64,000 nucleotides of DNA from positions 222,679 through 286,678 of the forward strand of contig JAQWEN010000001.1 in the NCBI GenBank assembly GCA_028704885.1, read 5' to 3'. Source of the stretch: Candidatus Shapirobacteria bacterium. Its GTDB lineage: Bacteria > Patescibacteriota > Microgenomatia > UBA12405. Positions 15,038-55,176 of this stretch are shown one piece after another. How positions within the stretch are numbered: position 1 is the first letter of the stretch; every line of letters begins with the position of its first letter. Position numbers and translations under genes: made by a program. The notes beneath the pieces were generated by a model. The model made no database searches. It saw only the letters and a program-made list of their open reading frames with translations, and had not been told where the DNA came from.

Positions 15038-17203
15038 TTATTTCTTTTTACCCCAGTGTTGTTGAGAAGTGGCAATGAGCTTGGCACGTTGTTGGTTTTT
15101 ACAAGAAAGAGGTGGAAGAGTGGTGGCATAGAAAGGTTCAGTGGTTTCAGAATCAATAGAAAGTTTGGAAATAATTTGATATTTACCAATTTTAACTAAA
15201 TCTTCTGGAGGGAATTGAGCCCCAAATTCTTTAGCGAGGATGAAAGCATCTTGATTACCAACAACAAAGGACATAATCGAGCCAACGTTACCTAAAATAG
15301 CGTCTTGAATAGTGCGATCGAGCTGAGCCATATATTGATTGGCAATGATTAGGTTAAGTTTGAATTTGCGAGCTTCGGAAAGAATTTTAATAAAGGCTTC
15401 GGTGGCAAAATTTTGAAATTCATCGACATATAAATAAAAATCGGAACGATCTTCACTGGCCTGAAAAACACGATTCATAGCGGAAAGTTGGATTTGAGTG
15501 ATTAACATGGCACCAAGAAGGGCAGAATTATCTTCACCTAATTTACCAGTAGAAAGGTCGGCAATCAAAATTTTCTTTTGATCCATGATTTCTTGAATAT
15601 TTATTTTTGATTTGGGATGAGCAACGGTATTTCTAATATTAGTGGAAGAAATAAACTGACCGACTTTATTTAAAATGGGGGAAACGGCTTCATTTTGAAA
15701 TTTGGGATCCATACGATCAAATTCGTTGTGCCAGAAATTAATTAAAGTTTGATTAGTTAATTGAGAAACGACTCTTTCGCGAAAATTTTTGTTGGTTAAA
15801 ATTTCAACGATATGAGTTAAATCACTGCCAGGAGTGTTGACTAAGGTTAAAACAGAATTTCTTAAAATATGTTCAAGACGAGGGCCCCAGGAAATATTGC
15901 CGTAAAGTTTTTTGAAAATAGAAATAACACCGGAGGCAATTAATTCTTTTTGATTTTCATTTTTAGCTTCTAAAACATTGAGAGGATAGGCATATTCTGG
16001 ATCGGCGGGGTTGAAATAACAACAATCATTAATTCGGTTTGAAGGGATATAGTCAAGAATAGTGTTGCACAAATCGCCGTGAGGATCGATGACGGCGACA
16101 CCGCGACCTTTACGAATATCATCGATGGCCATGTTGGCAATAAGAGTAGTTTTACCAGTACCAGATTTACCAATGATATAAGTGTGACGGCGACGATCTT
16201 CGCCCTGTTTGATACCAAAAATAGAATCTTTATTTCTAAATTCAGTTTTAGCAAAAAAGGTTATTTCATTTTTTTGTTCTGGAGTAAGATTATCGGCAAC
16301 TGGAAGATTTTCTGGTGGATCGGAATAAAGCTTTTTACCCCAAGCAATATTGGGAAGTTTGGTATTTAAATTAGGAAAATGCCAAATAGCGGCTAACTCT
16401 TCGGTATTAAAAATCTGACTTTTTAATTTAATATTAAATTTACGAGTACAAATTGATTCCTGGAGTTTCTTTTTGGCAAAAAATCCAGGAGTAAAATTTT
16501 TAATAAAATTACCACGAGGATTAGTGTAGGCACCAAAAGAAGAAGAAACGGAAGCGACGAGTCCGGGATTATTACTAAAAAGATTAATTTGGGTATAAAG
16601 ACCGGGAAATTGAATTTTTTGTTCAAAAATGGCTTTGTCGGGGTGAGCACTACGAATATTTCTTTCTCGATCAATTAAAATTCCATTTTGAATAGTGCTA
16701 ACAATACCACCCTGCCAATTTTTTGGAGCACCGCTGAGAAGAATTTGGAAGAGAAAAAAATCTTTGGCATTGTTAGACCTTGAAAGAGGAGCCAAAACGG
16801 AAGTTAATGGATCAGTGTCCTTAAAATCTTTAGCGGTTTTAGTTGGATAATCATAGGATCGGCCTAAACCAAGCTGAGTAAAAGTGATTGGCAAGGCTGG
16901 ATCGAGTTCAAGCAAATAATCTTTGGTATCTCGAAGAATAGCAGTGGAATATTGAGCTAAAATTTGGGAACGAAGAAATTCACTGTTATCAGAAAGGGCA
17001 GCAACATAAAAATGAATTTGACCATCTTTTAAGACGATTTCCAGGGAAACAATAGTTTTTTTCTTGCCAATTAATTTTTCAAAAAAAGAAAGGTTAGAAA
17101 CTTGGGTAAAGTTTGAAAGCAGAGCAGACATAGACTCAAAAGTATGTTCATTGGTTTGAGGCAAGCGGACTTCAAAAATTGAAAGACTGGCCGTATCGGA
17201 CAT
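15038..17203 (-). CDS. FtsK/HerA-superfamily ATPase of the type IV secretion coupling-protein type (VirD4/TraG-like, TraM-recognition/DUF87)
   Basis: Walker A IIGKSGTGKTTLI followed by VIDPHGDL, and a Walker B LYVDEFQNF. At 721 aa with an N-terminal non-ATPase region it resembles the stand-alone T4SS DNA-binding ATPases common in CPR genomes. Confidence 0.55.
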   Translation of the reverse strand: MSDTASLSIFEVRLPQTNEHTFESMSALLSNFTQVSNLSFFEKLIGKKKTIVSLEIVLKDGQIHFYVAALSDNSEFLRSQILAQYSTAILRDTKDYLLELDPALPITFTQLGLGRSYDYPTKTAKDFKDTDPLTSVLAPLSRSNNAKDFFLFQILLSGAPKNWQGGIVSTIQNGILIDRERNIRSAHPDKAIFEQKIQFPGLYTQINLFSNNPGLVASVSSSFGAYTNPRGNFIKNFTPGFFAKKKLQESICTRKFNIKLKSQIFNTEELAAIWHFPNLNTKLPNIAWGKKLYSDPPENLPVADNLTPEQKNEITFFAKTEFRNKDSIFGIKQGEDRRRHTYIIGKSGTGKTTLIANMAIDDIRKGRGVAVIDPHGDLCNTILDYIPSNRINDCCYFNPADPEYAYPLNVLEAKNENQKELIASGVISIFKKLYGNISWGPRLEHILRNSVLTLVNTPGSDLTHIVEILTNKNFRERVVSQLTNQTLINFWHNEFDRMDPKFQNEAVSPILNKVGQFISSTNIRNTVAHPKSKINIQEIMDQKKILIADLSTGKLGEDNSALLGAMLITQIQLSAMNRVFQASEDRSDFYLYVDEFQNFATEAFIKILSEARKFKLNLIIANQYMAQLDRTIQDAILGNVGSIMSFVVGNQDAFILAKEFGAQFPPEDLVKIGKYQIISKLSIDSETTEPFYATTLPPLSCKNQQRAKLIATSQQHWGKKK

Positions 17204-19164: not shown

Positions 19165-19860
19165 ATGAAATATAAGGCTAAAAGTAAAAAATTGGGTAAA
19201 ATTAAATTCATGTTAACCCTCTTAGCTTTAAGTGGAGGATTATTGGTGGCAACAAAAATGGTGCAAACTAATCAAGAAAATAGAGGTAATGCTGTTGGTA
19301 GTACAGTTTACACGGGGTATTCGGTATTAAATAATACTTTGGAATGTAGAAATGCTGGTGGAATTTGCGCTACATTCAATACAGCTTCAACAAGTTATAG
19401 TTTATATAAAGGTACTTGTTCGGTAAATGGAGTTAGTGGAACTTTTATAACTGGAAAATGTGCTGGTGACTGGAGAACTACTTGCTGCAATACGGGAACA
19501 TCTTGCTATGTGGGAAATTATAGAATTCCTAATGGAGCTAAATTCTGCAATACTTTGGCTAAAACTAGAGTTTATGTTTGTAATAGTGGAAATATTGTTT
19601 ATCAAGGTTTAGATTGTTCTTCTAGGGGAAAAATTTGTGAAAATGGTAATTGTGTGACTAAACTTTCAGGGACTGATGCTGGGGCGGAAAAGTGTGTAAT
19701 TAAAGGTGGTAATTGTCAAACTAATTATGCTAGTTCAGGATTAATAGTTACACCGTCAGAGGGGACTGTGTGTATGATCGGGAATAAATTAGGAACTTTT
19801 AAATCTGGTTTGTGTAGTGGTAAATACATAACTGGATATCGATGTTGCGTTCCTAATTAG
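19165..19860 (+). CDS. secreted Cys-rich protein (paralog of the N-domain of the 21571 protein; ends in a CCVPN motif)
   Basis: N-terminal signal anchor (FMLTLLALSGGLLVA), then about 30 cysteines in spaced patterns. The C-terminal YRCCVPN resembles ARCCVPD in the protein at 21571. Confidence 0.5.
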   Translation: MKYKAKSKKLGKIKFMLTLLALSGGLLVATKMVQTNQENRGNAVGSTVYTGYSVLNNTLECRNAGGICATFNTASTSYSLYKGTCSVNGVSGTFITGKCAGDWRTTCCNTGTSCYVGNYRIPNGAKFCNTLAKTRVYVCNSGNIVYQGLDCSSRGKICENGNCVTKLSGTDAGAEKCVIKGGNCQTNYASSGLIVTPSEGTVCMIGNKLGTFKSGLCSGKYITGYRCCVPN

Positions 19861-21479: not shown

Positions 21480-21570
21480 AATCAGCTGATTTTCAGGTGT
21501 TTTTGGAACTGATACGTTGACATGGTTTTTTAAAAGTGCTTTACTTTTCTATAAGATATTTTTTATAAAA

Positions 21571-23337
21571 ATGAAACAAAACAAAGGTATTTCCCAAATT
21601 ATGGTGATGCTTGTTATGTTGGTTTTAGCAATAGCACTTCCAATAACGACAAGATTAGTACAAAAGAGTCTGGAAAATAGAAGTAAAGCGACTATAGCTT
21701 TTTTAGATTATGCTGAAGTATGCACTGGAGATGCTAGTTGTAAACCACCATCTGGTCAAACTTCTGGTTTTTGTACAGATACTACACATTTAACTAATTG
21801 GCCATCTTTTAATAAAGGAGCTCCTCCTGTTTGTTCTTATGGATGGGGAAATAGTAGTAACACTAGACGTAATGAGGCTTGTATATCAGTAGGTGGTAGT
21901 TGTACTGAGGCATATGCAACTCCTTGGGGAAGTGATTGTAAAACAGATAAAGGTGTTGATGGTACTGTGGTTTGGAATTTGTGTTTGGCTGACCCCTATC
22001 TTGGTGTTGCAAGATGTTGTGTCCCTGATACTGTTTATGCTCAATGTGGGACTATTAATGATTCATGTGTTAAAGGAACGCTTACTCAAATGGATGATAC
22101 GGATACTCAATTTAAATGGAAATGTACGGGTTATGTAAATAAAGTAAGTGTTGAATGTAGTGCAGCTAAACCGGTCTGTACTACCGGTGATAAACAATGT
22201 TCCGGAACTAAACTTCAAACTTGTACCAATAATGCTTGGTCTGACACCACTGATTGTGGAGCTCTAGGTTGTAACTCAACTATTAAAGCTTGTAATGCTC
22301 AAGTCTGTACTACCGGATCGACGCAATGTTTGAATAGTAATACTAAACAAACTTGTGCCAATAATGCTTGGGGTGGAAATGAAACTTGTACTTATGGTTG
22401 TAGTGGTGGTACTTGTAGTAATCCAATTTGTGGTGCTACCGATAAGAAATGTTTAGATAATATATTACAAAAGTGTAATGCGGCTAGAACTGGTTGGGAA
22501 ACCGACACTGATTGTGGAGCTTTAGGCTGTAATTCAACTTCTAAAACTTGCAATGTATGTGTAAATGGATATCAAAAATGTAGTACGAGCGACAATTATT
22601 TTACCTGTAATGATGGTCAATGGTCGACTTCAACTACTGATTGCACAGGTGATAAAGTTTGTACTGATGGTGCAAATTCTGACTCTGTTTGTCATGATCC
22701 TGAATATGTGGCACCAAAATTAAATATGCAGATAGCTTTGTTGGGAGTAGGTGTTTCTGGTACGACACCTAAATGTTTGGGAGATATTAAATTAAAGATA
22801 AATGTATCTAAAGTTGGCCAGCCAGGAATTACTAGAGAAATAACAGCAACTAAGGTTGATGGTAAATTTTCAACTATAAAAACGGCTGGTGATGGTTATC
22901 AAGTTTATCAAGTTAGTAATTTTGCTCTTGATAACACTTTTGCATTAACAGATAAAATTTATATAAATATTACCGGGGCAAATAATAGTAATAATTTGAA
23001 ATTATTGACAACTCTTTATGGTAAAAATAATCAAACCGATGGTTTTGTGCCACAAGATGAAAGTCAGATATTAGTTTCTTCTTTAGTCAACAACACTTTA
23101 AATTTATATAATTATCCGATTTTAAATGGTGATATCGGTTCAGAAACTGCCAGTACTCAAGGAGATGGTGTTATAAATGGCTTTGATTTTGTGCATATGA
23201 AAAATCAATGGAATGAAAGTGTGACAGCTAATGAAACATTGAGGTCTGATTTGAATGGAGATTGTTTTGTCGACAGTATTGATCTTCAAATTTATAAGAA
23301 TTCGACATCGGTGCAATATAATGCAAAAACTTTTTAA
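21571..23337 (+). CDS. large secreted Cys-rich repeat protein with a C-terminal dockerin-like Ca-binding module
   Basis: Signal anchor MKQNKGISQIMVMLVMLVLAIALPI. An N-domain ends in RCCVPD, followed by at least four ~40-aa Cys repeats (CTTGxxQC ... QTCxNNAW ... DCGALGCNST.K.CN). The C-terminus has two dockerin-like loops (GDGVINGFDFVHMK; DLNGDCFVDSIDLQIYK). The ORF-track start at 21517 lies upstream of the signal peptide, so the ATG at 21571 is preferred. Confidence 0.55.
   Translation: MKQNKGISQIMVMLVMLVLAIALPITTRLVQKSLENRSKATIAFLDYAEVCTGDASCKPPSGQTSGFCTDTTHLTNWPSFNKGAPPVCSYGWGNSSNTRRNEACISVGGSCTEAYATPWGSDCKTDKGVDGTVVWNLCLADPYLGVARCCVPDTVYAQCGTINDSCVKGTLTQMDDTDTQFKWKCTGYVNKVSVECSAAKPVCTTGDKQCSGTKLQTCTNNAWSDTTDCGALGCNSTIKACNAQVCTTGSTQCLNSNTKQTCANNAWGGNETCTYGCSGGTCSNPICGATDKKCLDNILQKCNAARTGWETDTDCGALGCNSTSKTCNVCVNGYQKCSTSDNYFTCNDGQWSTSTTDCTGDKVCTDGANSDSVCHDPEYVAPKLNMQIALLGVGVSGTTPKCLGDIKLKINVSKVGQPGITREITATKVDGKFSTIKTAGDGYQVYQVSNFALDNTFALTDKIYINITGANNSNNLKLLTTLYGKNNQTDGFVPQDESQILVSSLVNNTLNLYNYPILNGDIGSETASTQGDGVINGFDFVHMKNQWNESVTANETLRSDLNGDCFVDSIDLQIYKNSTSVQYNAKTF
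22249..22554 (+). repeat. intragenic direct repeat (two ~48-nt copies at 22249-22296 and 22507-22554) within the Cys-rich repeat gene
   Basis: ACTGATTGTGGAGCTCTAGGTTGTAACTCAACTATTAAAGCTTGTAAT versus ACTGATTGTGGAGCTTTAGGCTGTAATTCAACTTCTAAAACTTGCAAT; the copies differ at 7 of 48 nt. Confidence 0.6.
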
Positions 23338-23353
23338 AAATTAAACCTAAACA

Positions 23354-23962
23354 ATGGAAAACAATAATAAAATACTGAAAATTTTGATACCAATAATAGC
23401 AGTAGTAATTATTTTTGAAAGTGTAATGTTGGTATCTGGTTTAGAAAAAAGTAATATTGTAACAAAAGAATCGACTGGTTCGGCGGAAACAAAAAAGGAG
23501 GAAGTGGTAGTTGGTAATGCTTTTGATTTGGTTTTTTCGACTGATTCTAAAGAAATGAAGGTTGATAAAAATTATCAAATTAAGTTGCAAGGTTTAGTAA
23601 AAGAAAAAAATACTTTGGATGCAATTGATATTTCAATCAAATATGATGCTAAAAATTTAGATATTACTAATTTGGTTTTTGATGAAAAATTACCGAAACC
23701 ATTTATAGGTCAAATAATAAAAGAAGACGGAATGATAGTGGTGAAATATTTGATAGAAACCAAACAGGGGATGACTTTTAATGTTAATGACGTTGTCTCT
23801 TTGGTTAGTTTTAATGTTAAAACAAGAGTGGCTGGCAATTATGAATTTGAAGTTGCTACTGGTAATGAAGATAAAAAATTTGCTACTATGTTTATAGAAA
23901 ATACTTCGGCTAAGGCTTTGCCTTTCTCAGGTAATAAATTAGAAATTAATGTAATTAAGTAA
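23354..23962 (+). CDS. membrane-anchored cohesin-like (beta-sandwich) domain protein
   Basis: N-terminal TM (ILIPIIAVVIIFESVMLV), then a segment AFDLVFSTDS ... IKLQGLV ... IDISIKYDAKNLDITNLVFDE that resembles the cohesin pattern (a.v.v.v ... l.yDp..L.v..v..G). Confidence 0.4.
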   Translation: MENNNKILKILIPIIAVVIIFESVMLVSGLEKSNIVTKESTGSAETKKEEVVVGNAFDLVFSTDSKEMKVDKNYQIKLQGLVKEKNTLDAIDISIKYDAKNLDITNLVFDEKLPKPFIGQIIKEDGMIVVKYLIETKQGMTFNVNDVVSLVSFNVKTRVAGNYEFEVATGNEDKKFATMFIENTSAKALPFSGNKLEINVIK

Positions 23963-23964
23963 AA

Positions 23965-24678
23965 ATGAAAAAGACAATATCAAATTTATTATTGACGGGA
24001 GCTTTTTTATTGTTGTCTACTAAAGTTGTAGCTGCGGCTGACCCAAAGTTATATTTTAGCCCAGCAACTGGGAGCTATCATGTTAACGATACTTTTGCAG
24101 TGACGATGATGATTGATTCTGGGGCGATGGTGGCTGGAGCAGCAGATTTAGTGGGAACTTTTGATCCGGCGTTGTTAGAGATTACAAGTATAGAAACTGC
24201 TACTGATATGGCATTTAATAAGAGTGTTAGCGGTGGTTCTTGTTCAAATAATTCTACTGCAGAATGGGCTACTGGAAAATTCTCGGCTGTTTGTTATTCA
24301 TCAATGACAGCTGGTGATCAGATAACTACTGGAAATTTAATGGTGATTACTTTTAAGGCAAAAGCAGTGGGTACAGCAACGGTTGGTTATACTTGTGATG
24401 GTACTTCTGGTGATTCAAATATAACTCAAACATCACCAATTAAAGATATTATAGTTTGTTCAGCTAATGGCAGTGGTTCTTATACAATAACAGCTGCAAC
24501 TGGGGATGCGGCTACTCCAACACCAACAACTGGTTCTTCAACCTCTACTTCCACAACAGTTACACCTACAACTGTTCCAACACAATTACCTCAGACAGGA
24601 GGGGTGGCAACAACTGTTGGTTTGATTGTTTTCGGAGCTATTAGTTTTGCCTCAGCATTGTTTTTGAAATTTCTATGA
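23965..24678 (+). CDS. cohesin-like surface protein with a Thr/Pro linker and a C-terminal LPXTG sortase sorting signal
   Basis: Signal peptide ending AAADP. A cohesin-like AVTMMIDSGAMVAGAADLVGTFDPALLEITSIETAT. A linker TPTPTTGSSTSTSTTVTPTTVPTQ. The C-terminus is LPQTGG, then a hydrophobic stretch, then K at the end. Confidence 0.5.
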   Translation: MKKTISNLLLTGAFLLLSTKVVAAADPKLYFSPATGSYHVNDTFAVTMMIDSGAMVAGAADLVGTFDPALLEITSIETATDMAFNKSVSGGSCSNNSTAEWATGKFSAVCYSSMTAGDQITTGNLMVITFKAKAVGTATVGYTCDGTSGDSNITQTSPIKDIIVCSANGSGSYTITAATGDAATPTPTTGSSTSTSTTVTPTTVPTQLPQTGGVATTVGLIVFGAISFASALFLKFL

Positions 24679-25343
24679 AAGGTAAGGTTAACTTAAAAAC
24701 GATAATTATTTTTGCTATTTTGATTGTAGTAATTGTATTGTCGGTTTTATTAGTTGGGAAAGCCAAAACTTTTTTAAGTGGAGCAACAGCTGATTATGAA
24801 CCACAAAATTTATTGGCCGTTCCTAAAGAAGATGGTAAAACAGCAATGGTTTCTTGGACAACTGATAAAGAAGTGAAGGCTTCTGTTTTTTACGGAACTA
24901 ATATGGCAAGTTTGCTTTTAATGGCAGAAGATGTGGAAGTGGCAGTTGATCATAATATTTTATTAACAAATTTAAAGAGTAATACGACTTATTACTATAA
25001 AATAGTGGTCGACAATGACAATATTTTTGATAATGGGGGAATGATGTATAACTTTAAAACTAATGGTAGCGATGAAGTATTAGAACCAGTAGTTACAATT
25101 GAACCGACATTAGTTCCAACTTTAACAGCTTCTTCATCAAGTAGTTCAGCGATTAGTTCATCAACTTGCAACAGAACAACAGATTATAACAAAGATGGGG
25201 TAATTAATAGTGTTGATTATATTTCCTGTACAAAAGGAATAATTACTCCAACAGCTGAGGACGCTTGTGCTGGTGATTATAATAAAGATGGAGTAACTAA
25301 CAGCTTAGACAGAATAAAGTGTTTACAAGACACCAAAAGATAG
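24675..25343 (+). CDS. FN3-like domain protein with a C-terminal canonical double dockerin repeat
   Basis: N-terminal TM; an FN3/PAP-N-like MVSWTTDKEV ... TYYYKIVV. Two dockerin Ca loops, TDYNKDGVINSVDYISC and GDYNKDGVTNSLDRIKC, fit the D-x-N-x-DG-x-V/I-N-x-x-D consensus. Confidence 0.5.
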   Translation: MKGKVNLKTIIIFAILIVVIVLSVLLVGKAKTFLSGATADYEPQNLLAVPKEDGKTAMVSWTTDKEVKASVFYGTNMASLLLMAEDVEVAVDHNILLTNLKSNTTYYYKIVVDNDNIFDNGGMMYNFKTNGSDEVLEPVVTIEPTLVPTLTASSSSSSAISSSTCNRTTDYNKDGVINSVDYISCTKGIITPTAEDACAGDYNKDGVTNSLDRIKCLQDTKR

Positions 25344-48816: not shown

Positions 48817-51471
48817 CTACTTAACTTTTTCGTCTTCTATGGTGGAATCGTTTTTATCGATAATAGTCATGGCACTTAATTTGTCATCAGTGGATTTAAA
48901 TCTCATAAGAATGACACCTTTAGTGTTGCGGCTAAGAGTTGGAATATTCTTTAAAGGTAATTTAATGGTGATGGCTTTTTTAGAAACTAAGACAACTTGG
49001 TCGTCAGTTTCAGAGACAACTTGAGCGGCAGCAATCTTACCATTTTTAGTACTGAGATTAGCGACCTTGATACCAATACCGCCTCTTTTTTGAGATGGGT
49101 AGAGATAGACATCAGTTCTTTTGCCGACACCATTTTCAGTGACAACTAAAAGATGTTTAAAGATACCTTTTTCTTTTTTATCAATAACACTAGGAACAAC
49201 ATCCATACCGACTAAAGTGTCGCCTTCTTTAAGAAGAATGCCGCGAACACCTCGAGTTTGGCGACCCATAGGTCGACAATCTTTTTCATCAAAGCGAATA
49301 CATTTGCCATTTTTAGTAACCATAAATACTTGATTGTCACCTTCGGTTAATTTGGCCCAGGTAAGTTGATCGTTAAGATCGAGTTTAATGGCGGCTAAAC
49401 CGGTTTGGCGAATATTCTTGAATTTATCTATGGAAGTTTTTTTAACGACTCCATTTTTAGTAGCGAGTAGAATAAATTTAGCTTTGGTATTTTTACCAAT
49501 TGGAAGGATAGTTTGGACAGTTTCACCTTGAACAATATTAATTAGATTAACAACAGCTTGACCTTTGGCTTGTCGGGTGCCTTCCTGGACATCCCAAACT
49601 TTGGTTTTGAAAACTCGGCCACGATTAGTGAAGAACAAAAGATCGTCGTGAGTATCAACCGAAAGCATACATTCAATTTCGTCTTCATTTTTAGTGGTCA
49701 TACCAACAACACCAACGCCGCCACGTTTTTGAGTGTGATAGGTTTCTTTGGCAACGCGTTTCATGTAACCAGTTTTGGTTAAAGCAACTAAAACAGCTTC
49801 ATTAGGAACTAAATCTTCTTCACTAAATTCTTCTAATCCACGGGCGTAAATTTTGGTTCTTCTATTATCACCATATTTTTCCATGATTTCATTATTTTCT
49901 TGTTTGAGAACAGCAGTCATGACTTCTGGTTTAGTAATAATATCAGTAAGATTGGCAATAGCTGTTTCTATTTCATTATATTCATCATCAAGTTTTTGTC
50001 TTTCAAGTCCAGAAAGTTTCTTAAGCTGCATTTCTAAAATAGCTTGGGCTTGTAGATCAGTAAATCCAAATTTTTCCATTAACTTACCTTTTGGATCTTC
50101 TTCTGGTTTGGTATTACGAATAGTTTTAATAACTTCTTCGATGAAATCAAGAGCTTTTTTAAGACCTTCTAAGATATGGGCACGCAATAAATCGCCTTTA
50201 AGATCATAAATACTGCGGCGGCGAATAACGTTTTCTCGATGACGTAAAAAAAGAAGTAACATCTGTCGTAAATTTAGAGTTTGAGGAACATTGTCGACTA
50301 AGGCCAACATATTGGCAGAATATGATGATTGAAGAGCGGTATATTTGTAAAGTTTATTTAAAATGGACTTTGGCTTACCTATTTTTTTAATTTCGACGAC
50401 AACTCGAATACCATGACGATCAGACTCATCACGAAGGTCGGAAATTCCAATGATTTTTTTATCACGAACTAAATCAGCAATTTTTTTAACTAATTCAGCT
50501 TTGTTTACTTGATATGGTAACTCAGTAATAATAATTCTGATTCGGCCGGATTTAGTTTCTTCAATATTAGTTTTGCCACGGACAATGAATTTACCACGAC
50601 CAGTGGAATACATTTCAATTATCCCGGTTTTTCCATAAATTTCACCAGCGGTTGGAAAATCTGGTCCTTGAACAAATTTAACTAAATCTTCAACAGTGGC
50701 ACTGGTTTCAAAATTAAAATGCTCTTTTGCTAATTCAAAAGCTGGTCTCAAAACCATTTCTTGAGTATTTTTAGGTGGAGCTAAAAAATTATTTAACTCT
50801 TCTTTGTTTTCGATTCTTTCTAATCGACTGTTGTTTAAAATAAAATCGATAGCTTGGCAAAGTTCTTTTAAGTTATGAGGAGGAATACGAGTAGCCATAC
50901 CGACAGCAATACCATCGGCGCCATTTAAAAGTAGAGTGGGAATTTTAGTTGGAAGAACGGATGGTTCTTTTTCGGTGGCATCGAAATTATCAACCATATC
51001 AACAGTTTCTTTGTTTATATCAGCCACTATTTCGGTAGTAATTTTATCTAATTTGACTTCGGTATAACGCATGGCGGCTGGAGGATCACCATCAATGGAA
51101 CCGAAATTTCCTTGGCCTTTAATAAGAGTGTAGCGAAGAGAAAAATCCTGAGCTAAACGAACAAGGGCGCCATACACAGACATATCACCATGGGGATGAT
51201 ATTTACCTAGAACATCACCAACAACTTTGGCTGATTTACAAGTTTTGCCGCCACTACCGAGACCCATTTTATCCATGTCAAAAATTATGCGGCGGTGGAC
51301 TGGTTTAAGGCCATCTCTAACATCAGGTAAGGCTCTAGAAACGATAACTGACATGGCATAGTCAAGATAAGAGGTTTCCATTTCGGGAACAATATCAACT
51401 TCCATAATTTTACCAATACTTGAATTAGTTCTTTTAATGTCAGTGACAATAGTATTTTTTTCTTCAGTCAT
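48817..51471 (-). CDS. gyrA: DNA gyrase subunit A
   Basis: Active-site region AMRYTE, the QRDR-like [21 protein letters not shown], and the GyrA box and C-terminal beta-pinwheel repeats (QRGGIGI). Confidence 0.95.
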
Positions 51472-54138: not shown

Positions 54139-55176
54139 TTAATTGCAATTAGCAGCAGGAGCAGCCCCACTGTCAGCGGCTGCAGCAGCATTTGGATCTT
54201 CAAGAACGGTTTTACATTCTTTTGGAGCTTTATTGAAAGCACTACAAAGAGCTTCTTTAATAACGTCTGGAGTTCTGGTTTGACTTAAACTGAAGACTTT
54301 ATTACCGATTTTAAGATTTTGATCAGTTGAAGTTGAATCCACTTCAGGAGGGAAAACTTGATCACCAATCATTAGGGATGGTGAACCTTGGATTTTGTAT
54401 TTAGTAGTATCAGCAATTTCTTTTTCAATTAGGCTGGCAGCATCTTTATTGAAACATTCTTTAATTTTATTGGTGTCATAACCAGCTTTTTGGGCTTGTT
54501 CTTCCCAACATGTGTCGGCATTTTTGGAAGTACAATTATCATTGACATTTTTGACGAAATCCCACCAAAGTTTTTTATCTTCAGTAAGGTTATAGGCACA
54601 AATTTCGCGAACATCTTGATTAGCTTCGATTCGACCGTGAAGGGATGAATAAAGATTATTACCTATTTTTAAATATTTGCTTTCATCGTTACAGCTTTTG
54701 ACCATGGCAGCGATTTGATTTTGACAGTCAGCCTTATCTTTAAGTTGGCCACCACTGTTTTTGACATAAGTATCACATTGAGCAGGATCTGGACTACTGG
54801 TTTTACAATAAGCGGCTAAATTGCCTTCAATTTTTTCAAAAATATAACGAGGTTTAATTTCAACTTTATTACCAAGAAGATCGAAAATTGGTCTTAAGGT
54901 AGTTTCCATTTGATTACCGTATGGACAAAAACTCATAACATAGAAATCTAATTGAGGTTTATTAGCTTTGGTGGCGGCAAAAACATTTTTGGAAGTTAGT
55001 TTGGCAGTGTCAGAACCAGCTATTTTAAGTTTAATTTTCATTAAAACAACTCCAGCTGCAAGTGAGGCACCGGCTAATAATAAGGAAAAAATAATAGCGG
55101 CAACGAGAGAGACTTGAATAGTTTTTCTTGCTGGAAGAAGTTCGTTTTTTTCTTTTTTAATTATTTTTTTTGGCAT
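54139..55176 (-). CDS. membrane-anchored thioredoxin-fold / DsbA-like thiol:disulfide oxidoreductase
   Basis: N-terminal TM, a CxxC active site (FCPYG), about 12 additional Cys, and an Ala-rich C-terminal tail. Confidence 0.5.
   Translation of the reverse strand: MPKKIIKKEKNELLPARKTIQVSLVAAIIFSLLLAGASLAAGVVLMKIKLKIAGSDTAKLTSKNVFAATKANKPQLDFYVMSFCPYGNQMETTLRPIFDLLGNKVEIKPRYIFEKIEGNLAAYCKTSSPDPAQCDTYVKNSGGQLKDKADCQNQIAAMVKSCNDESKYLKIGNNLYSSLHGRIEANQDVREICAYNLTEDKKLWWDFVKNVNDNCTSKNADTCWEEQAQKAGYDTNKIKECFNKDAASLIEKEIADTTKYKIQGSPSLMIGDQVFPPEVDSTSTDQNLKIGNKVFSLSQTRTPDVIKEALCSAFNKAPKECKTVLEDPNAAAAADSGAAPAANCN

Follow-up and report, generated by a model that had tools for sequence, protein, structure and literature searches.

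What cohesin and dockerin modules might do on the surface of a Candidate Phyla Radiation (CPR) bacterium is the question raised by four consecutive genes in a 64-kb stretch of DNA, hereafter the window, from a Candidatus Shapirobacteria metagenome-assembled genome (Microgenomates, Patescibacteria/CPR). An earlier note, made from the letters of this DNA, had read the four genes as a cell-surface docking module resembling a cellulosome but with no glycoside hydrolases around it. That observation is confirmed by our analysis and its interpretation at the level of domains holds. We consider it slightly better than an even chance (about 0.55) that the cassette forms a docking system of its own on the CPR envelope, built from cohesins and dockerins but not cellulosomal, and displays swappable and probably adhesive cargo.

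The four open reading frames (ORFs), here called p1 to p4, all lie on the + strand at the places that the earlier note had given them, and every peptide it quoted is present. The intergenic distances are 16 bp (p1/p2) and 2 bp (p2/p3), followed by a 4-bp ATGA overlap (p3/p4), and by gene spacing alone we infer that the genes are co-transcribed; a scan for promoters and terminators returned 39 promoter-like sites where 30 were expected, and where 2.5 terminators were expected it returned a single weak one, inside p1. Housekeeping genes surround the cassette in the array rpsB-tsf-frr-rseP-[cassette]-rpsU-yqeY-ybeY-dnaX-ybaB-recR. When hidden Markov models (HMMs) were run over all window ORFs of at least 40 residues, two cohesins and two dockerins were counted and no further member of the four families was found. 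The features of the cassette, all on the + strand, are as follows.

21571-23337, +: p1, the cargo protein, 588 residues with 40 cysteines; leader, cysteine-rich ectodomain, conserved beta module and dockerin (ORF; Pfam Dockerin_1)
21571-21690, +: p1 N-terminal leader; KG-ISQI, a hydrophobic segment, then 'LVQKSLENRSKA' (motif common to cargo N-termini and to p0, a neighbouring gene)
22177-22704, +: four tandem six-cysteine repeats of 41-49 residues (residues 203-378), 38-56% identical to the first repeat
22705-23160, +: beta-rich 'X-like' module before the dockerin (residues 379-530; alignment A3 over 20 loci)
23161-23301, +: p1 dockerin (residues 531-577); the first loop is degenerate and the second, DLNGDCFVDSID, canonical (Pfam Dockerin_1, 32.6 bits)
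23354-23962, +: p2, an N-terminally membrane-anchored single cohesin of 202 residues (ORF; family of ~200-residue proteins)
23366-23437, +: p2 transmembrane helix (residues 5-28) with Glu22-Ser23 (AlphaFold helix)
23522-23959, +: p2 cohesin domain (residues 57-202; structure and profile)
23965-24678, +: p3, 237 residues; signal peptide, cohesin, Thr/Pro/Ser stalk and LPQTG sorting signal (ORF; Pfam)
24079-24438, +: p3 cohesin (Pfam-aligned residues 39-158; Pfam Cohesin, 35.0 bits, E 2e-8)
24586-24675, +: p3 C-terminal sorting signal; LPQTG, 22 hydrophobic residues and KFL (motif)
24675-25343, +: p4, 222 residues; N-terminal hydrophobic segment, FN3-like domain, Ser-rich linker and dockerin (ORF; Pfam)
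24813-25061, +: p4 FN3-like domain (residues 47-129; Pfam Pur_ac_phosph_N, 34.6 bits)
25179-25313, +: p4 dockerin (residues 169-213); near-identical canonical loops DYNKDGVINSVD and DYNKDGVTNSLD, each bracketed by cysteines (Pfam Dockerin_1, 28.1 bits)

The identity of these modules was judged against the Pfam gathering cut-offs, which are 22.9 bits for Dockerin_1, 24.1 for Cohesin, 30 for Pur_ac_phosph_N and 20 for Gram_pos_anchor, and against that of NCBIfam TIGR01167 (15.9 bits). The cohesin-like segment claimed for p3 scores above its gathering cut-off, most of the 81 clusters of p3 homologues carry a precomputed match to PF00963, and a protein identical to p3 is labelled 'cohesin domain-containing protein' at NCBI. 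A search of PDB sequences with the p3 profile, which gave marginal cohesin matches (E 0.2-0.4) together with a match to a streptococcal R28 domain, was set aside. For p4, the FN3-like domain and the dockerin both exceed their cut-offs, and both loops are canonical, as had been stated. The two dockerin-like calcium loops ascribed to the end of p1 stand in part: Dockerin_1 is passed and the second loop is canonical, but the first is degenerate (S-T-Q-G-D-G...). The type-I standard applied to both proteins was a tandem pair of ~22-residue segments, each made of a 12-residue calcium loop of the form D-x-[DN]-x-[DN]-G-...-D and a helix after it. A family profile of the cargo dockerin, built from alignment A3, matches solved type-I dockerins with a best E of 4.1e-11.

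The protein p2 is a cohesin that standard annotation has overlooked. It has no Pfam match at E <= 1 and no NCBIfam match, and an identical protein is labelled 'hypothetical protein' at NCBI; the membrane-anchored, cohesin-like character attributed to it is nonetheless borne out by a structural model, a structure search and a family profile. An AlphaFold2 model based on 29 homologues has a predicted local distance difference test (pLDDT) score above 90 at residues 57-202, preceded by a disordered stalk and, at the N-terminus, by a helix of residues 5-28, and its folded part is the nine-stranded jelly-roll beta-sandwich of cohesins. Foldseek comparison of this model with the PDB gave 38 top matches that were all cohesins (best E 1.3e-8, TM score ~0.75 normalised to the target), with those of Clostridium perfringens (2vo8) and Archaeoglobus fulgidus (2xdh) among the best. 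Against PDB sequences the p2 family profile matched only three chains, all of them cohesins. An exhaustive search of 1.84 billion representative sequences with the same profile returned 271 proteins at E <= 1e-3 and 139 at E <= 1e-10, nearly all of ~200 residues; the family comprises at least 139 clusters at 50% identity. In the long proteins with 9, 6 and 4 Pfam cohesins, among them GH9-CBM3-Coh6 and CBM3-X2-Coh4 scaffoldins, the profile matched 9, 6 and 4 stretches respectively, with library-wide E values of 1e-13 to 1e-22; PF00963 is also precomputed on one distant member of the p2 family. Direct comparison of the p2 and p3 profiles is weak (hhalign probability 3%), and the two cohesins are too diverged for a direct link, each being tied to canonical cohesins separately. 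The earlier note had made its reading depend on a cohesin HMM or structural match for the proteins starting at 23354 and 23965, and such a match was found for both.

Halfway along the p2 membrane helix, a Glu-Ser pair is invariant in the 29 aligned homologues and in every listed p2 orthologue of the related loci; the most distant family members have Gln-Thr in its place or lack it. This intramembrane pair may mark a contact with a partner.

The p3 sorting signal that had been predicted is present as LPQTG at nt 24586 and is kept across the family. In 40 homologues the L and P of the motif never vary, and conservation of its T and G is 90% or more; among loci with a complete p3 C-terminus, 25 of 27 have LPx[T/A]G and the other two LLQTG. 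The signal is under clear constraint. With p2 held by its N-terminal helix and short stalk, and p3 secreted and carrying its LPXTG signal on a Thr/Pro stalk, the cassette is predicted to provide two single-cohesin anchors.

These modules recur together throughout the lineage. We examined the contexts of three diverged p3 homologues and 23 species-representative loci, using phmmer and HMMs. Homologues form 81 clusters for p3 and 45 for p2 (word-indexed search), and all of the named ones belong to Shapirobacteria or Woesebacteria. The order cargo-p2-p3-p4, with p2-p3-p4 contiguous, is found in 20 of 20 untruncated species-level loci, rpsU is the next gene after p4 in 19 of these 20, and the block begins after rseP in every locus with sufficient upstream flank. 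Even the most distant relatives of p2 that were found (profile E ~1e-13 to 1e-20) have an X-dockerin protein on one side and a p3-like cohesin on the other. The arrangement is not a product of chance: neighbouring genes gave three domain calls that are independent and above threshold, and the same layout is kept in more than 20 species.

Within the cassette, p4 is among the most conserved components. The mean pairwise identity of its FN3 domain is 0.52, compared with 0.65 for housekeeping proteins, and only the 32-residue transmembrane segment of p2 is higher among cassette modules (0.58). An alignment of 22 orthologues shows a nearly invariant p4 N-terminus, MKGKxNLKTII...KTFMSGA. By analogy with type-I dockerins, the symmetry of the p4 repeats suggests a dual binding mode, and the asymmetric dockerin of the cargo would resemble those X-dockerins that bind anchoring scaffoldins.

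The cargo gene itself is conserved at its ends and variable between them. The start of p1 is taken as the ATG, which the N-termini of homologues (MNKQKGISQI...) favour over an upstream TTG at 21517. In the cargos of loci L002-L027 the leader opens with a short basic stretch (often KG-I-[SA]-Q-I) and continues through a hydrophobic part to '[KN]LVQ[QK]xQ[ED][NT]R[SR]xA', and a strict pattern recovers it in 23 of 28 candidate cargo N-termini, the misses being four near-variants and one spurious overlapping ORF. The same leader occurs on p0 (19165-19300) and is absent from p2, p3 and p4; it matches nothing in Pfam or NCBIfam and may constitute a dedicated sorting or processing signal. A type IV pilin identity for the leader (KG|ISQI...) was considered and rejected, there being no N-methyl/prepilin HMM match at E <= 1 and no Glu at +5. 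The protein p0 (19165-19860, +) is itself a secreted protein of 231 residues with 18 cysteines, encoded between tsf and frr and without a dockerin, and it has in common with p1 the leader and a 'C..GG.C...CC.P' module. Equivalent slots between housekeeping genes are occupied in relatives by an extra Pfam-cohesin protein upstream of frr (L015:1-1287) or by a PA14 protein (L004:3118-5100).

Beyond the leader, the cysteine-rich region of p1 spans residues 51-374. The repeated cysteine-rich modules described in the earlier note are present as the four six-cysteine repeats; they correspond to no Pfam family, and p1 contains no relevant tandem repeat at the DNA level, which corrects the claim to one about protein. 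In every related locus the gene directly upstream of p2 ends in the same module of ~210 residues, a beta-rich domain followed by a dockerin, and the six cargo proteins of this kind that were scanned all pass the Dockerin_1 threshold. The remainder varies greatly both in length (~400-1020 residues) and in sequence; it is usually cysteine-rich, and the sole recognisable domain in it is one Big_2. In many species there are further cargo genes, a second or a third. The variability is clearest between L002 and L003, two assemblies of the same species with identical p2 and p3 and with flanking DNA that is 99.4-99.9% identical. Their cargo proteins are 92% identical over the N-terminal 219 residues and 99% identical over the C-terminal 246, whereas the central 350-520 residues cannot be aligned. 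The cargo is therefore a mosaic, the displayed part of which is swapped between strains while the export and docking ends are retained. Two observations on assemblies agree with strain heterogeneity in this region: a Logan contig from an independent assembly of the source sample (L001) breaks inside the cargo gene, and in one relative there are runs of N inside it (L017:5783-5876).

The pairing of X-like module and dockerin is also found outside the cassette. In relatives it occurs on a cysteine-rich protein encoded between ybeY and dnaX (L015:10088-11344), and in L021 (12220-14025), at a distance of 5 kb from the cassette and outside it, it precedes a phosphodiester glycosidase domain of the NAGPA type. 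In two relatives a cargo protein (L004:8104-9372; L031:2-964) has a p3-like cohesin ahead of an X-dockerin, an adaptor-scaffoldin architecture. The X-dockerin dyad is portable. A second class of cysteine-rich cargo ends in a duplicated 'D.NCDG....DYS.W' (L006:5512-6993, L014:3184-5763, L019:3367-5196, L020:1-1218, L023:3245-5755 and L026:2616-5624). These C-termini score 13-20.8 bits with Dockerin_1, below the cut-off of 22.9, or do not match it, and the ending is dockerin-like and may represent a divergent type of dockerin.

A mechanism can be proposed on this basis. After Sec export, p3 would be linked to peptidoglycan by a sortase encoded outside the window. The X-dockerin of the cargo would plug into a cohesin in a Ca2+-dependent manner, with p3 the most likely partner, and docking would bring to the cell surface a disulfide-rich module that can be swapped and that probably serves adhesion or host recognition. 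In p4, the symmetric dockerin would occupy the other cohesin, possibly that of p2, close to the membrane. The whole would be a two-tier platform, one tier in the membrane and one in the wall, comparable in its working to the tier by which ScaE anchors the cellulosome of Ruminococcus flavefaciens, minus the enzymes. The evidence for specific binding is indirect and consists of the conserved synteny and of correlated divergence. The latter comes from a mirror-tree analysis, in which distance matrices were correlated over 18 taxa with control for housekeeping divergence. The p3 cohesin correlates at 0.81 with the cargo dockerin and at 0.80 with the X module, the p2 cohesin at 0.76 with the X module and at 0.71 with the cargo dockerin, and the p4 modules at 0.20-0.46 with either cohesin.

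Several points weigh against this interpretation. The mirror-tree values fit a p3-cargo pairing only as a hint, being confounded by gene linkage and shared recombination history. The second dockerin repeat is absent from p4 in 4 of 22 species (L006, L017, L018 and L027), and truly so because ~47 bp are left before rpsU; therefore, a canonical interaction between p4 and a cohesin is not universal. The first calcium loop of the cargo dockerin, degenerate in p1, is interrupted by an insertion of 6-8 residues in many orthologues. The X-like module was modelled at a pLDDT of only 46.8 from an alignment of three sequences, the search having given two homologues. The p3 anchor falls just below the cut-offs of the generic models (18.5 for Gram_pos_anchor, with a cut-off of 20, and 14.5 for TIGR01167, with a cut-off of 15.9). 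No sortase was found in the window or in 30 related loci with TLxTC/L.TC motifs and a phmmer search with Staphylococcus aureus SrtA; a sortase has been reported in a complete Microgenomates genome (PMC7143001). The cargo has no adhesin, lectin or enzyme domain recognisable by Pfam, and it is regarded as an adhesin solely because it is cysteine-rich, located at the surface and hypervariable. Lastly, the episymbiotic lifestyle of the source organism is assumed from its phylogenetic position.

How far the docking reading should be preferred depends on what else could account for the same genes. A structural role would make the cassette a rivet, in which p2, p3 and p4 tether the membrane to the wall or S-layer, either the p2 cohesin or the p4 dockerin binding wall-linked p3, so that the role is envelope integrity and the cargo is incidental. 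The trio does form a lineage-wide core set within a housekeeping block (rpsB-tsf-frr-rseP ... rpsU-yqeY-ybeY-dnaX); p4 is one of its best conserved parts, both p2 and p4 have conserved N-terminal hydrophobic segments, and the p2 stalk, of only ~25 residues, would place its cohesin in the wall zone. However, directly upstream there is always a dockerin-bearing cargo, whose dockerin and X module vary in step with both cohesins, half of the p4 dockerin has been lost in four species that retain p2 and p3, and no case is known to us in which cohesin-dockerin pairs play a structural part; we regard the rivet as unlikely. A degradative machine, a minimal relative of the cellulosome, amylosome or mucinolysome whose dockerin hydrolases are encoded elsewhere and attack polymers or host walls, is decidedly unlikely, given that the window holds no dockerin-bearing glycoside hydrolase or other enzyme, that Pfam found a catalytic domain in none of the ten in-cassette cargo proteins of related loci, and that neither a multi-cohesin scaffoldin nor a carbohydrate-binding module (CBM) was found. 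In its favour are the X-dockerin-NAGPA fusion in L021, the adaptors in L004 and L031, which show that the network can be hierarchical, and the fact that the inspected DNA is 64 kb of a 735-kb genome.

The hypervariability of the cargo could also be the mark of an arms race, with the cysteine-rich protein serving as an antagonistic or host-manipulating effector or toxin loaded on to the cohesin platform. Replacement of the central region between strains with conserved termini is compatible with this, small disulfide-rich modules are common in secreted toxins, and the paralogous p0 lies nearby without a dockerin. Against it, Pfam detected neither a toxin nor an enzyme domain, none of the neighbours in the gene lists stood out as immunity-like, and polymorphic toxins vary C-terminally while this cargo varies centrally; an effector role seems to us very improbable. 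The sceptical position, that generic EF-hand or thrombospondin-type calcium repeats and generic Ig-like folds are adjacent by coincidence and form no functional system, can draw on a weak TSP_3 match in p4 (E 0.12), the lack of a Pfam match for p2 and the 3% hhalign probability between p2 and p3. It is scarcely credible when three modules pass Pfam gathering thresholds, when the p2 profile matches every cohesin repeat of canonical scaffoldins and when synteny is kept in 20 of 20 untruncated loci, and we consider it effectively refuted by the Pfam, Foldseek, dockerin-profile and p2-profile results. An extension of the docking reading is bolder: in Shapirobacteria and related Microgenomates the cassette would be the organelle that recognises hosts or substrates, in which a two-tier anchor of membrane cohesin and wall-linked cohesin, fixed in the core genome, receives interchangeable, recombining, cysteine-rich X-dockerin adhesins that set partner specificity, and the leader (LVQxxQ[ED][NT]R..A) marks a dedicated export or processing route. 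This we offer tentatively, as a possibility that we doubt.

Other features of the window lie outside the cassette. A protein of 345 residues (54139-55176, -) has a thioredoxin-like domain (VSR_TRX, 34.7 bits) and could be an extracytoplasmic disulfide oxidoreductase for the cysteine-rich secreted proteins. A TrwB/VirD4-like coupling-protein ATPase (DUF87/DUF8128) is encoded at 15038-17203 (-), and occupies the same place upstream of rpsB in relatives. The match of GyrA (48817-51471, -) to the DNA_topoisoIV model is split into two stretches, perhaps because its N-terminal domain contains an insertion. GC skew is strongly positive (0.2-0.47) in the first 46 kb, a part in which nearly every gene is on the + strand, and is about zero at 48-54 kb, where gyrA and gyrB are on the - strand; an unusual strand composition disparity has been described in a published Microgenomates genome (PMC7143001).

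Among known assemblies, the cassette does not qualify as a cellulosome if that means an enzymatic complex, in agreement with the earlier note, which had reported neither a sortase nor a glycoside hydrolase in the window. Both absences were upheld by HMM, phmmer, motif and Pfam scans, and searches for dockerin-bearing carbohydrate-active enzymes (CAZymes) and for a scaffoldin with several cohesins or a CBM found none. Specifically, Pfam identified no glycoside hydrolase or other CAZyme in p1-p4, in ten cargo proteins from relatives or in the 30 other large ORFs of the window, which proved to be housekeeping genes only. The cohesins of p2 and p3 are single, CBMs are absent from p1-p4, and the window holds no further cohesins. 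The cassette falls into the wider group of cohesin-dockerin systems outside the cellulosome. The modules of A. fulgidus (2xdh) and the glycosidase/toxin cohesins of C. perfringens (2vo8, 2jh2, 2w1n) are similar in assembling proteins outside cellulose degradation. In C. perfringens, however, the modules are carried by large secreted enzymes and form enzyme-enzyme complexes, whereas here they reside on dedicated small anchors in a conserved operon. The amylosome of Ruminococcus bromii and the mucinolysome apply cohesin-dockerin logic to other substrates, including through sortase-anchored scaffoldins (PMC4611034, PMC12997984); they share with the cassette a purpose other than cellulose and differ in being multi-enzyme degradative complexes, whereas the cassette has no enzyme client in the window.

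Within the CPR, a dockerin-domain protein, SEML1_0315, is essential in the cultivated epibiont Southlakia epibionticum according to transposon sequencing (PMC10633639), and so offers a CPR case of an envelope protein with a dockerin domain on which epibiotic growth depends. That organism belongs to another CPR lineage, the Saccharibacteria, and PMC10633639 mentions neither a cohesin partner nor a cassette. In the searchable literature on cohesins and dockerins in CPR, Patescibacteria, Microgenomates, Shapirobacteria and Woesebacteria, no description of the cassette was found. Attachment to and recognition of partners by these bacteria are little understood beyond type IV pili, and their surface proteins are mostly 'hypothetical'. 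In the cassette, a well-understood and tractable interaction module appears as a core feature of a lineage with strain-variable cargo, and the hypotheses it raises can be tested without cultivation.

The closest known counterpart in both architecture and function would be the ScaE tier of R. flavefaciens. The X-dockerin clients of ScaE include non-enzymatic adhesive proteins (CttA). ScaE consists of a signal peptide, a single cohesin, a linker and an LPXTG motif through which sortase links it covalently to the wall (PMC12484212, PMC11557425), and p3 has the same architecture. The clients of ScaE that combine an X-module with a dockerin (ScaB, CttA and a cysteine peptidase) resemble the C-terminal dockerin of the cargo with the putative X-module before it, and the genes are clustered in both systems, as in the sca gene cluster. 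Unlike the ScaE system, the cassette has neither a primary multi-cohesin scaffoldin nor dockerin-bearing glycoside hydrolases; it possesses a second cohesin on an N-terminal transmembrane helix, its cargo is hypervariable and cysteine-rich, its host is a CPR bacterium with a genome of ~0.7 Mb, and it sits in a block of ribosomal and housekeeping genes. The new elements are thus the CPR host, the paired membrane and wall single cohesins, the fixed housekeeping position, the hypervariable cysteine-rich cargo and the cargo leader motif. Divergent cohesins are known to need structure prediction for their detection (PMC11557425, PMC13463774); because one of the two cohesins here likewise escapes Pfam and is labelled hypothetical, cohesin-dockerin networks outside the Firmicutes may be under-counted. 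For cellulosome research, the cassette provides a minimal, enzyme-free anchoring tier and a cohesin anchored by a transmembrane helix.

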